Shown here piece by piece: positions 33,331-34,722 of a stretch of DNA of 64,000 bases. The stretch is from sequence record MH550421; one strand, given 5' to 3'. Positions within the stretch are counted from its first letter, which is position 1; each line of letters opens with the position of its first letter. Under the pieces are notes generated by a model, which was not told where the DNA came from, searched no databases, and saw only the letters and a list, made by a program, of their open reading frames with translations. The position numbers and the translations under genes were made by a program. This DNA is from Enterobacteria phage T6.

Positions 33331-33363
33331 GATACCAAAAAGCCCCAACCTTTCGGTCGGGGC
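33331..33363 (-). terminator. Strong intrinsic terminator ending the tRNA/stable-RNA transcription unit
   Basis: Minus transcript GCCCCGACC-GAAA-GGUUGGGGC (9-bp stem, GNRA loop) followed by UUUUUGG. Confidence 0.7.
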
Positions 33364-33680
33364 TAAGCCTTGCGGCAACCTTGTCGGGGTTCCACCTGCT
33401 AAGGCAAGTGTTTGTACGAAACGCCGGGACTTGAACCCGGTTATTAAGTAGTTGACGCTACTCAATATTTTTAAAAGGCCATATCTCGACCATATCCGAA
33501 CGTTCCGTCAAAAACGCTACTCGGCTTATGGCAAAGATATTTCCTCGAATCGATAATTCGGCGCGCCGTTTCTGCTGTGATGTAAGGGGATATTAACAAA
33601 ACATAAAGATTTATTAATGCCAGTCCTTACTCAGGGAACATCAGTCCGACGACTTACCGGTAGCGACCCGGTTTCTCATT
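33364..33680 (-). ncRNA. Structured non-coding region downstream of tRNA-Arg; candidate small stable RNAs (T4 species 1/2, RNA C/D-like)
   Basis: About 320 nt, GC-richer than flanks, no ORF, contains tRNA-like T-arm CCGGGTTCAAGTCCCGG; equivalent position to the T4 stable RNAs by memory. Confidence 0.45.
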
Positions 33681-33755
33681 TGGTATCCCGCCCTGGGATC
33701 GAACCAGGACCGCAAACTTAGAAGGATCGTATGCTATCCATTACACCAGCGGGAC
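33681..33755 (-). tRNA. tRNA-Arg (anticodon UCU)
   Basis: 75 nt incl. CCA; GTCCCGCTGGTGTAATGGATAGCATACGATCCTTCTAAGTTTGCGGTCCTGGTTCGATCCCAGGGCGGGATACCA folds as a cloverleaf. Confidence 0.85.
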
Positions 33756-33760
33756 ATAAT

Positions 33761-34426
33761 TTAAAATTTCATTTTTCGACCTTTAAACCATCCTTCTGGA
33801 ATTGGATCAGTTTTCTTAATACGTTTAGAAACTTTTTCATCTAATGAATGAATCCACATCATACCAAATTGGGAATTCTTTTCACCTTTCTGGTGATTAT
33901 TTTTAGCGTGAATTTCTTTCATTTTATTAATAGTTTCAAGAGTATGATGCTTATTTAAAAATCTGCTATTATTTAAAAATTTTTCCTTGTATTCAGGAGT
34001 TGACCATAAACGTTTAAATACATTTGAACCATTTTGACGATATTTTTCTTGAAGTAAAATATCATTTTTAAAACGTGACTTAAACGATTTAGCTCCTTTT
34101 AAACTAGCGTCTTTCTTCTGATTTAGCATCTCAGGAATATTTATATGATCCCATCCACCTTCACCGCCAAGTTTTAAATTATACACATCTGGTCTATTTA
34201 AAAACTCTTCTGTGACAATATTTTTCTCGGCTTCAAGCATAGATTCTTTATCATCAAAATATTCTAATATTTCTTTAGAAAAATTTTCTATACCATACCT
34301 GTCTTGGGCTCTTTTTAATAATTTACCAGAACCCATATATCCATCATCTAAATTTTCGGTAGAATGCACACCAATATAAATTTTATTATTAATTTTATTT
34401 GTTATTTTATAAAGATAAAAATGCAT
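33761..34426 (-). CDS. segB: GIY-YIG homing endonuclease SegB (inside the tRNA cluster)
   Basis: 222 aa from Met MHFYLYKITNKINNKIYIGVHS; the longer track ORF start overlaps the adjacent tRNA; location matches T4 segB. Confidence 0.75.
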   Translation of the reverse strand: MHFYLYKITNKINNKIYIGVHSTENLDDGYMGSGKLLKRAQDRYGIENFSKEILEYFDDKESMLEAEKNIVTEEFLNRPDVYNLKLGGEGGWDHINIPEMLNQKKDASLKGAKSFKSRFKNDILLQEKYRQNGSNVFKRLWSTPEYKEKFLNNSRFLNKHHTLETINKMKEIHAKNNHQKGEKNSQFGMMWIHSLDEKVSKRIKKTDPIPEGWFKGRKMKF

Positions 34427-34472
34427 ATCAGTCCTTAATAAAGAACTGAGCGTCTCACGACGAGTCATAAAT

Positions 34473-34559
34473 TGGTGGGGAGTGGTGGAGTCGAACCACC
34501 CGAGTCGCAATGACAATGAATTTACAGTCCACACCGCTACCTCTACGGGATAACTCCCC
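34473..34559 (-). tRNA. Type II tRNA with anticodon GUA (tRNA-Tyr-like)
   Basis: 87 nt incl. CCA; acceptor GGGGAGT/ACTCCCC, anticodon loop CTGTAAA, long variable arm, T-arm GGTGG-TTCGACT-CCACC; hand fold. Confidence 0.55.
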
Positions 34560-34568
34560 TAATTAATT

Positions 34569-34645
34569 TGGTGACCCAGACCAGATTTGAACTGGTAACC
34601 TTTCCCTTATGAGGGGACTGCTGCTAACCATTGAGCTACAGGGCC
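34569..34645 (-). tRNA. tRNA with anticodon CAU (Ile via lysidine, or Met)
   Basis: 77 nt incl. CCA; anticodon loop CTCATAA; one T-T mismatch in the acceptor stem. Confidence 0.6.
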
Positions 34646-34646
34646 T

Positions 34647-34722
34647 TGGTGCTGATTGACGGAATCGAACCGCCGACATCCTCATTACAAGTGAGGTGCT
34701 CTACCTACTGAGCTACACGGAG
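34647..34722 (-). tRNA. tRNA-Thr(UGU)-like element with non-complementary acceptor stem (possible pseudogene)
   Basis: 76 nt; D-arm, anticodon arm (CTTGTAA), T-arm and 3' AATCAGC-A-CCA are canonical, but 5' positions 1-7 (CTCCGTG) cannot pair with the 3' strand. Confidence 0.4.

Follow-up and report, generated by a model that had tools for sequence, protein, structure and literature searches.

A tRNA-Tyr gene of phage T6 with a shifted D arm and a likely role in countering tRNA-Tyr-cleaving nucleases

The gene at 34473-34559 (minus strand) of the window, by which we mean the whole 64,000-nucleotide stretch of DNA analysed (sequence record MH550421), is the tRNA-Tyr(GUA) gene of bacteriophage T6: it spans 87 nt including an encoded CCA and is recovered by ARAGORN, by the T6 RefSeq annotation (KMB99_gt002), by a family-specific covariance model and by covariation among its phage homologues. 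We consider it very likely that this is a functional gene which adds to the cellular tRNA-Tyr pool, and that it does so chiefly to counter nucleases that cleave tRNA-Tyr. The gene itself is already known, being both annotated and experimentally characterised, and its biology was worked out in 2026: it is a dosage-dependent counter to the Septu defence system that is amplified through SegB (Chihara et al., 2026; PMC13096335). The 1.85-kb region containing the gene, along with the 25-kb stretch around it, is 100% identical to phage T6 (AP018814.1/NC_054907.1), whose RefSeq annotation places tRNA-Tyr between a CAU tRNA labelled tRNA-Met and a homing endonuclease gene. The first-pass annotation had presented a tRNA-Tyr as a surprise relative to the classical T4 set, and the T4 record does indeed have no such gene. 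However, because the window is T6 and not T4, the gene is no longer unexpected: it is a normal, annotated cluster member in T6, T2, PST and hundreds of Tequatrovirus genomes.

ARAGORN, run on the whole window, predicts six minus-strand tRNA genes, tRNA-Tyr (gta) among them. The RNA-sense sequence of the latter is GGGGAGUUAUCCCGUAGAGGUAGCGGUGUGGACUGUAAAUUCAUUGUCAUUGCGACUCGGGUGGUUCGACUCCACCACUCCCCACCA. It is drawn by ARAGORN with a perfect 7-bp acceptor stem (GGGGAGU/ACUCCCC) and a 5-bp anticodon stem that includes two G:U pairs. The GUA anticodon (34523-34525, minus strand) lies in the 7-nt loop CUGUAAA (34521-34527, minus strand), with U33 and A37 both present. The long variable arm, UGUCAUUGCGACUCG (34501-34515, minus strand), comprises 15 nt and features a 3-bp stem, GUC/GAC, with the loop AUUGC; the T stem has 5 bp and a UUCRANY-type loop, UUCGACU; and the 3' end consists of the discriminator A followed by the encoded CCA. 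An 87-nt class II tRNA with the GUA anticodon, the CUGUAAA loop, a long variable arm and CCA had earlier been folded by hand, and ARAGORN returns it at the same coordinates, in agreement with the family model.

A blastn search with the 87 nt recovers homologues in 1,268 phage records, with identities of 95-97% in Vequintavirus, 91% in Certrevirus, 85% in Felixounavirus, 84% in Phapecoctavirus, 82-84% in Tequintavirus (T5-like) and 77-79% in Jiaodavirus; the Tequatrovirus carriers include T2, RB5 and RB68. From these and from IMG/VR we prepared two alignments: the first comprises 17 phage homologues, and the second 34 IMG/VR sequences, none exceeding 80% identity with the T6 gene. The anticodon loop is invariant in all the sequences of both (17/17 and 34/34). 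In the first alignment 98-100% of cells are paired in the acceptor, anticodon, variable and T helices, with compensatory changes in 6/7, 4/5, 3/3 and 3/5 pairs respectively, such that every pair of the variable arm covaries. Overall, compensatory pairs amount to 17/24 in the first alignment and 18/24 in the second, with 99% of cells paired and homologues drawn from at least seven phage groups; covariation is present in all five helices in both. The 34 sequences are a subset of the 83 unique homologues, with very diverse stems, that a pattern scan of IMG/VR yielded.

The D region (34532-34552, minus strand) is non-canonical, and its register was set by the covariation: the acceptor stem is followed by a connector, UAUC (34549-34552), then by the D stem CCGU/GCGG (34545-34548 with 34534-34537) closing a 7-nt loop, AGAGGUA, with U26 at 34533. 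The standard register of the D stem, as drawn by ARAGORN, pairs 58.8% of cells and places a C:C opposition in 17/17 sequences; it was dropped in favour of one lying 2 nt further in the 3' direction. In this shifted register 100% of cells are paired, with CUGU/GCAG as the covarying form of the stem in the T5-like phages; pairing is perfect in 17/17, 34/34 and 83/83 sequences of the two alignments and the IMG/VR set. The T6 tRNA-Tyr thus departs from the canonical 2-nt spacing between acceptor and D stems (U8, N9): its connector has 4 nt (U-A-N-N), as against two in E. coli tyrT/tyrV, and in the first alignment it is extended to five in CR3 and ASO2A. Of the 83 IMG/VR homologues, 80 have a 4-nt connector and three a 5-nt one; 75 form the D stem as CCGU/GCGG and eight as CUGU/GCAG, with mismatched combinations in none. 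The sampled members of the lineage share a signature to which T6 conforms, namely a connector UA+NN(N), a D stem CYGU/GCRG and a class-I-like D loop, A-R-N(0-2)-GGUA. Counted as a whole, the D region comprises 20 nt in this phage lineage, as many as in E. coli tRNA-Tyr.

The covariance model built on this shifted D-stem structure from the 34 IMG/VR sequences, none of them above 80% identity to the T6 gene, matches the latter over its full length (model positions 1-84) with 89.6 bits (E ~1.7e-24), all modelled pairs being canonical. Its next best matches are E. coli tyrT and tyrV at 53.9 bits, whose alignment requires two nucleotides of the connector to be deleted and leaves the D stem mispaired, followed by the phage tRNA-Leu at 40.8 bits. 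At its gathering score, the Rfam model RF00005 makes no call on tRNA-Tyr, while it matches five tRNAs of the cluster and part of a sixth; with an E-value threshold, too, the gene receives no RF00005 call. The first-pass annotation had named a covariance-model search returning no tRNA as a result that would count against it. Rfam did formally return none, and this is outweighed by the family-specific model, the covariation and the published experiments: RF00005 stays below threshold because the acceptor-D connector is non-canonical throughout the lineage, and not because a tRNA is absent. RF00005 misses, in this case, a genuine and experimentally validated tRNA, and for phage genes the lack of a covariance-model hit should not be equated with the lack of a tRNA.

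A decayed pseudo-tRNA, or a cloverleaf arising by chance, is accordingly a very improbable reading of the locus, and we regard it as effectively refuted. Such a reading could draw on the RF00005 result, on the C:C opposition in the standard D stem, on the label of pseudo-tRNA attached to some homologues, and on the thermodynamics of the single sequence, whose minimum-free-energy structure is not a cloverleaf and which folds no better than its shuffled versions (z = -1.1). Single-sequence folding is, however, uninformative for tRNAs, and the score against an independent family model, the near-complete pairing with compensatory changes in five helices and the perfect shifted D stem all speak for a genuine tRNA, the expression and function of which have moreover been published (PMC13096335). 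As for the labels, most homologues are annotated as tRNA-Tyr and a few as tRNA-Pseudo-GTA or tRNA-OTHER; these scattered labels are probably explained by the non-canonical connector.

The assignment to tyrosine is supported by the identity elements. The E. coli TyrRS recognises the discriminator A73, the G1:C72 pair and the anticodon bases G34 and U35. All of these are found in the T6 tRNA-Tyr; A73 is seen in 83/83 unique IMG/VR homologues, and G1:C72 in 16/17 aligned homologues. A long variable arm and a discriminator A73 occur in tRNA-Leu too, so that these two features would fit that isotype as well, and the best Rfam match on the gene, found with permissive thresholds, is tRNA-Sec (RF01852) with 30.9 bits. 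Nevertheless, we consider the probability that the isotype is Sec, or one of the other class II isotypes Ser and Leu, to be negligible: the tRNA-Sec match does not reach its cut-off of 47 bits and entails nine mispaired positions, the anticodon is GUA and not UCA, and the acceptor and T stems have 7 and 5 bp and not 8 and 5. The ranking of tyrT/tyrV above phage tRNA-Leu by the family model points the same way, as does the finding that rescue from a tRNA-Tyr-specific nuclease is achieved by over-expression of tRNA-Tyr only (PMC13096335).

The shifted D arm with its 4-5-nt connector is thus a solid and well-supported observation from comparison of sequences, with an uncertain significance. No earlier description of the connector anomaly was found in the literature on phage tRNA-Tyr that was covered, coverage which includes PMC11555353 and PMC12673091 and is incomplete. 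The extra 2-3 nt and the displaced arm, by which this very widespread lineage differs from host tRNA-Tyr, might represent a selected adaptation and not neutral drift, one which alters recognition by a nuclease such as PtuAB, a modification enzyme or a processing enzyme while that by TyrRS is kept; we view this as a speculative and rather improbable proposal. The same architecture is also encountered on contigs assigned to bacteria or to metagenome-assembled genomes (MAGs). Among the matches listed in a scan of contigs with the pattern GGTAGCRG-N6-CTGTAAA, 116 of 120 are chance occurrences and four are tRNA-like: three of the latter lie beside other tRNA genes on MAG contigs, which are 5.7-11 kb long where a length is recorded, and the fourth is alone on a 19-kb Tahibacter contig. 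The contigs with a shifted-D-arm tRNA-Tyr are L023 (an Elusimicrobiales MAG contig of 5.7 kb with nine tRNAs), L118, L063 and L049 (Tahibacter caeni). This setting suggests that the tRNA-rich contigs among them are binned phage contigs or prophages.

Upstream of segB, the T6 cluster has the order Gln-Leu-Gly-[Pro/Thr remnant]-Ile(CAU)-Tyr. The immediate upstream neighbour of tRNA-Tyr, a tRNA with the anticodon CAU (34569-34645, minus strand), is called Met by both ARAGORN and the T6 record. We read it as tRNA-Ile because its sequence is identical, except for the 3' CCA, to the tRNA-Ile of the T4 record. It is, judging from this identity, most likely an AUA-reading tRNA-Ile with a lysidine-modified CAU, which has been mislabelled as Met in the T6, PST and T2-type records. 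The CAU tRNA in the same position in T2 differs clearly in sequence from that of T6. The other edge of the segB cassette is formed by tRNA-Arg(UCU), which lies downstream of segB (33681-33755, minus strand) and is identified by ARAGORN, Rfam and the T6 record.

Several further features of this region emerged. The annotated T6 tRNA-Thr (34647-34721, minus strand) is a chimera that combines CUCCGUG, the 5' strand of the tRNA-Pro acceptor stem, with the body of tRNA-Thr. It goes back to a 165-bp deletion between copies of UAGCUCAGU, a sequence common to Pro and Thr, through which Ser disappeared entirely, Pro for the most part, and Thr lost its 5' strand. The acceptor stem of the chimera cannot pair, ARAGORN makes no call on it, and its Rfam match is limited to model positions 8-63; the gene is probably no longer functional. 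A query across the Pro/Thr junction is matched without a break only by the two T6 records and phage CJY920. Two stable RNAs of T4, rnaC (species 1, 97% identity) and rnaD (species 2, 88% identity), have homologues downstream of tRNA-Arg, at 33415-33553 and 33560-33679 (minus strand) respectively, which are absent from the T6 RefSeq annotation and match no Rfam family. They are followed by a strong terminator-like hairpin at 33341-33364 (minus strand).

The segB gene (33761-34426, minus strand) codes for a GIY-YIG homing endonuclease of 221 aa and begins at an internal ATG, 46 nt downstream of tRNA-Tyr. A mechanically called ORF (33761-34534) extends to a GTG start inside tRNA-Tyr, and the first-pass annotation had argued from this overlap for a start at the internal Met. 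The T6 and PST records both begin at 34426, from where the 221-aa T4 SegB aligns end to end with 95% identity over its full length, and the extended GTG-start ORF is not credible. The DNA directly upstream of the ATG is unrelated in T4 and T6. In T6 it contains a Shine-Dalgarno sequence, AAGGA, 6 nt before the ATG, held within a 9-bp hairpin, UCAGUUCUU-UAUU-AAGGACUGA (34428-34449, minus strand), that was picked up in the tRNA-Tyr/segB spacer by a scan for terminator-like structures; RNAfold gives -14.4 kcal/mol for the spacer. Its placement suggests that it masks segB translation in transcripts that read through from the tRNA cluster. AP018814.1 labels the product a 'serine recombinase' by similarity to an entry from phage HY03; it is a GIY-YIG protein instead. 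SegB prefers a site in the tRNA-Asn gene of T2L and cleaves inside the remaining tRNA genes as well (Brok-Volchanskaya et al., 2008; PMC2330249). Its motif, RAWTSGAAC, is not enriched in the window (10 sites versus 6.3 expected); two of its sites are in the T arms of Gly and Pro/Thr, and the T arm of Tyr, GAGTCGAAC, is a variant with one mismatch.

Published evidence for the role of the gene comes from experiments on the same T6 genome and Septu, a system whose PtuAB nuclease cuts the variable arm of tRNA-Tyr when T6 infects the cell (PMC13096335; Chihara et al., 2026). [quoted passage not shown] Escape mutants of T6 carried tandem 718-bp repeats comprising tRNA-Tyr and segB minus its 28 C-terminal codons, which arise at a microhomology and need the nuclease activity of SegB (PMC13096335). 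The underlying sequence can be located in the window: CTAAT occurs within segB (33841-33845), 28 codons before the stop, at one junction of the 718-bp unit, and again at 34559-34563, where it is made up of the first base of tRNA-Tyr and 4 nt of the upstream spacer, with the two copies exactly 718 bp apart. No relevant microhomology of 7 nt or more was seen in the window at a spacing of about 718 bp; the one that fits is the 5-nt CTAAT. A comparable function has been reported for the tRNA-Tyr of T5, SP15 and KpP_HS106, which neutralise retron-Eco7 in an anticodon- and stem-dependent manner (Azam et al., 2024; PMC11555353; Wang et al., 2025; PMC12673091).

A role confined to codon or amino-acid supply, by which the gene would simply serve an AT-rich phage rich in Tyr (TAT) codons, just as the other cluster tRNAs decode triplets that E. 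coli uses rarely, and have no selected anti-defence role, appears to us unlikely. A contribution to supply is nevertheless plausible: Tyr codons constitute 4.61% of the 16,814 codons in the ORFs of the window (TAT 36.3 per 1000) versus 2.33% in a 50-kb E. coli sample, which is rich in ribosomal protein genes and hence a rough baseline, and AGA, ATA, TTA, GGA and, less markedly, CAA, all of them decoded by neighbouring tRNAs, are ~1.4-4x commoner in T6 than in the same sample. However, E. coli reads both Tyr codons with a single anticodon (GUA), which leaves no rare-codon logic; T4 is of similar composition and lacks the gene; and the published gene-dosage phenotypes appear under Septu pressure (PMC13096335). 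T4 grows well without tRNA-Tyr, and the gene is therefore dispensable when the defence is absent. Supply and anti-defence roles are, at the same time, compatible with each other.

A second alternative sees in the molecule primarily a decoy, or a competing substrate that occupies PtuAB, and not a tRNA used in translation; Chihara et al. (2026) themselves speak of a 'decoy or supplement' (PMC13096335). The T6 tRNA-Tyr is relatively unstable and is itself cut by Septu at C48, like the host tRNA, and the over-expressed phage tRNA-Tyr partly shields host tRNA-Tyr from degradation (PMC13096335). By counting, C48 (linear numbering) maps to window position 34512, within the conserved GUC-AU of the variable arm. 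Nonetheless, the homologous SP15 tRNA-Tyr no longer rescues when either its anticodon or its stems are mutated, and over-expressed E. coli tRNA-Tyr rescues too (PMC11555353); further, neither the identity elements nor the anticodon loop vary within the family, a constancy that a pure decoy would not need. A predominantly decoy function is hence improbable in our view, even though decoy and supply roles become inseparable for a tRNA that is both unstable and cleaved by Septu.

We therefore favour a functional tRNA-Tyr which replenishes the cellular pool. In such a scheme, it would be transcribed with the tRNA cluster, directly upstream of segB, and the transcript would be processed to the 87-nt class II tRNA with its encoded CCA. 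It would presumably be charged by the host TyrRS and used in translation, thereby enlarging the cellular tRNA-Tyr pool. The Tyr codon demand of the AT-rich T6 proteome, approximately twice that of the host, may contribute to its retention; the more important need would arise when host tRNA-Tyr is destroyed by Septu PtuAB or retron-Eco7. In this scheme the effect depends on dosage: a single tRNA-Tyr copy confers partial resistance, and SegB-induced breaks with recombination at CTAAT generate the 718-bp tandem repeats of tRNA-Tyr and truncated segB that permit escape.

Comparison with known systems places the gene firmly. It is the same gene, in sequence, position and neighbours, as the T6 tRNA-Tyr of the RefSeq record (KMB99_gt002, NC_054907.1 66468-66554) characterised by Chihara et al. 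(2026; PMC13096335). Yersinia phage PST has a T6-like arrangement, with tRNA-Tyr followed by a gene named segB. The tRNA-Tyr gene of T2L was reported as early as 2008, and that of T2/T2L is cut internally by SegB in vitro (Brok-Volchanskaya et al., 2008; PMC2330249). The T2 version (AP018813.1) shares 86/87 nt with T6, along with the upstream spacer and the tRNA cluster. T2, however, lacks segB; the gene order there is Met(CAU)-Tyr-Asn-Arg, with tRNA-Asn placed 4 nt after Tyr. T6 and T2 are close to identical across the spacer that precedes Tyr and across the gene itself, in which there is one mismatch; in T6 and PST this homology ends 3 nt past the CCA, where the segB leader stands opposite the tRNA-Asn of T2. 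Judging from these alignments, T6 and PST appear to carry a T2-type cluster in which Asn has given way to the segB cassette, with T4 as a further variant that is without Tyr and without the CCA of tRNA-Ile.

The T4 cluster with its eight tRNAs, Gln-Leu-Gly-Pro-Ser-Thr-Ile-segB-Arg-rnaD-rnaC, matches the tRNA region of the window with 91% coverage and ~96.7% identity, the Tyr gene being missing. T4 shares with T6 the order of the cluster, identical Gln, Leu and Gly genes, the body of Ile(CAU) and most of the body of Thr, but it retains Pro, Ser and an intact Thr, all three of which are lost in T6. The T4 tRNA-Ile has GGGUCA-U at its end, where T6 encodes the CCA, and it continues directly into another segB leader. 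E. coli tRNA-Tyr (tyrT/tyrV, NC_000913.3) resembles the T6 molecule in being class II and in having the CUGUAAA loop, G1:C72, A73, the GUC/GAC stem and a homologous C48 site. It differs in its 2-nt connector UU, 3-bp D stem CCC/GGG and 11-nt loop, and in a variable-arm loop that is 2 nt shorter.

The closest functional parallels are found in the T5 group and SP15, whose tRNA-Tyr belongs to the T6 lineage with 82-84% identity, a 4-nt connector, the shifted D stem CUGU/GCAG and a discriminator A; in BF23, a member of the T5 group, the variable arm UGUCAUUGCGACUCG is identical to that of T6. The anti-defence logic against PtuAB nucleases is the same in these phages as in T6 (PMC11555353; PMC12673091). 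They differ in how it is achieved: the tRNA-Tyr of SP15 and T5 reportedly resists cleavage by retron-Eco7 and has a strong promoter, whereas that of T6 is cleaved by Septu and gains dosage via amplification.
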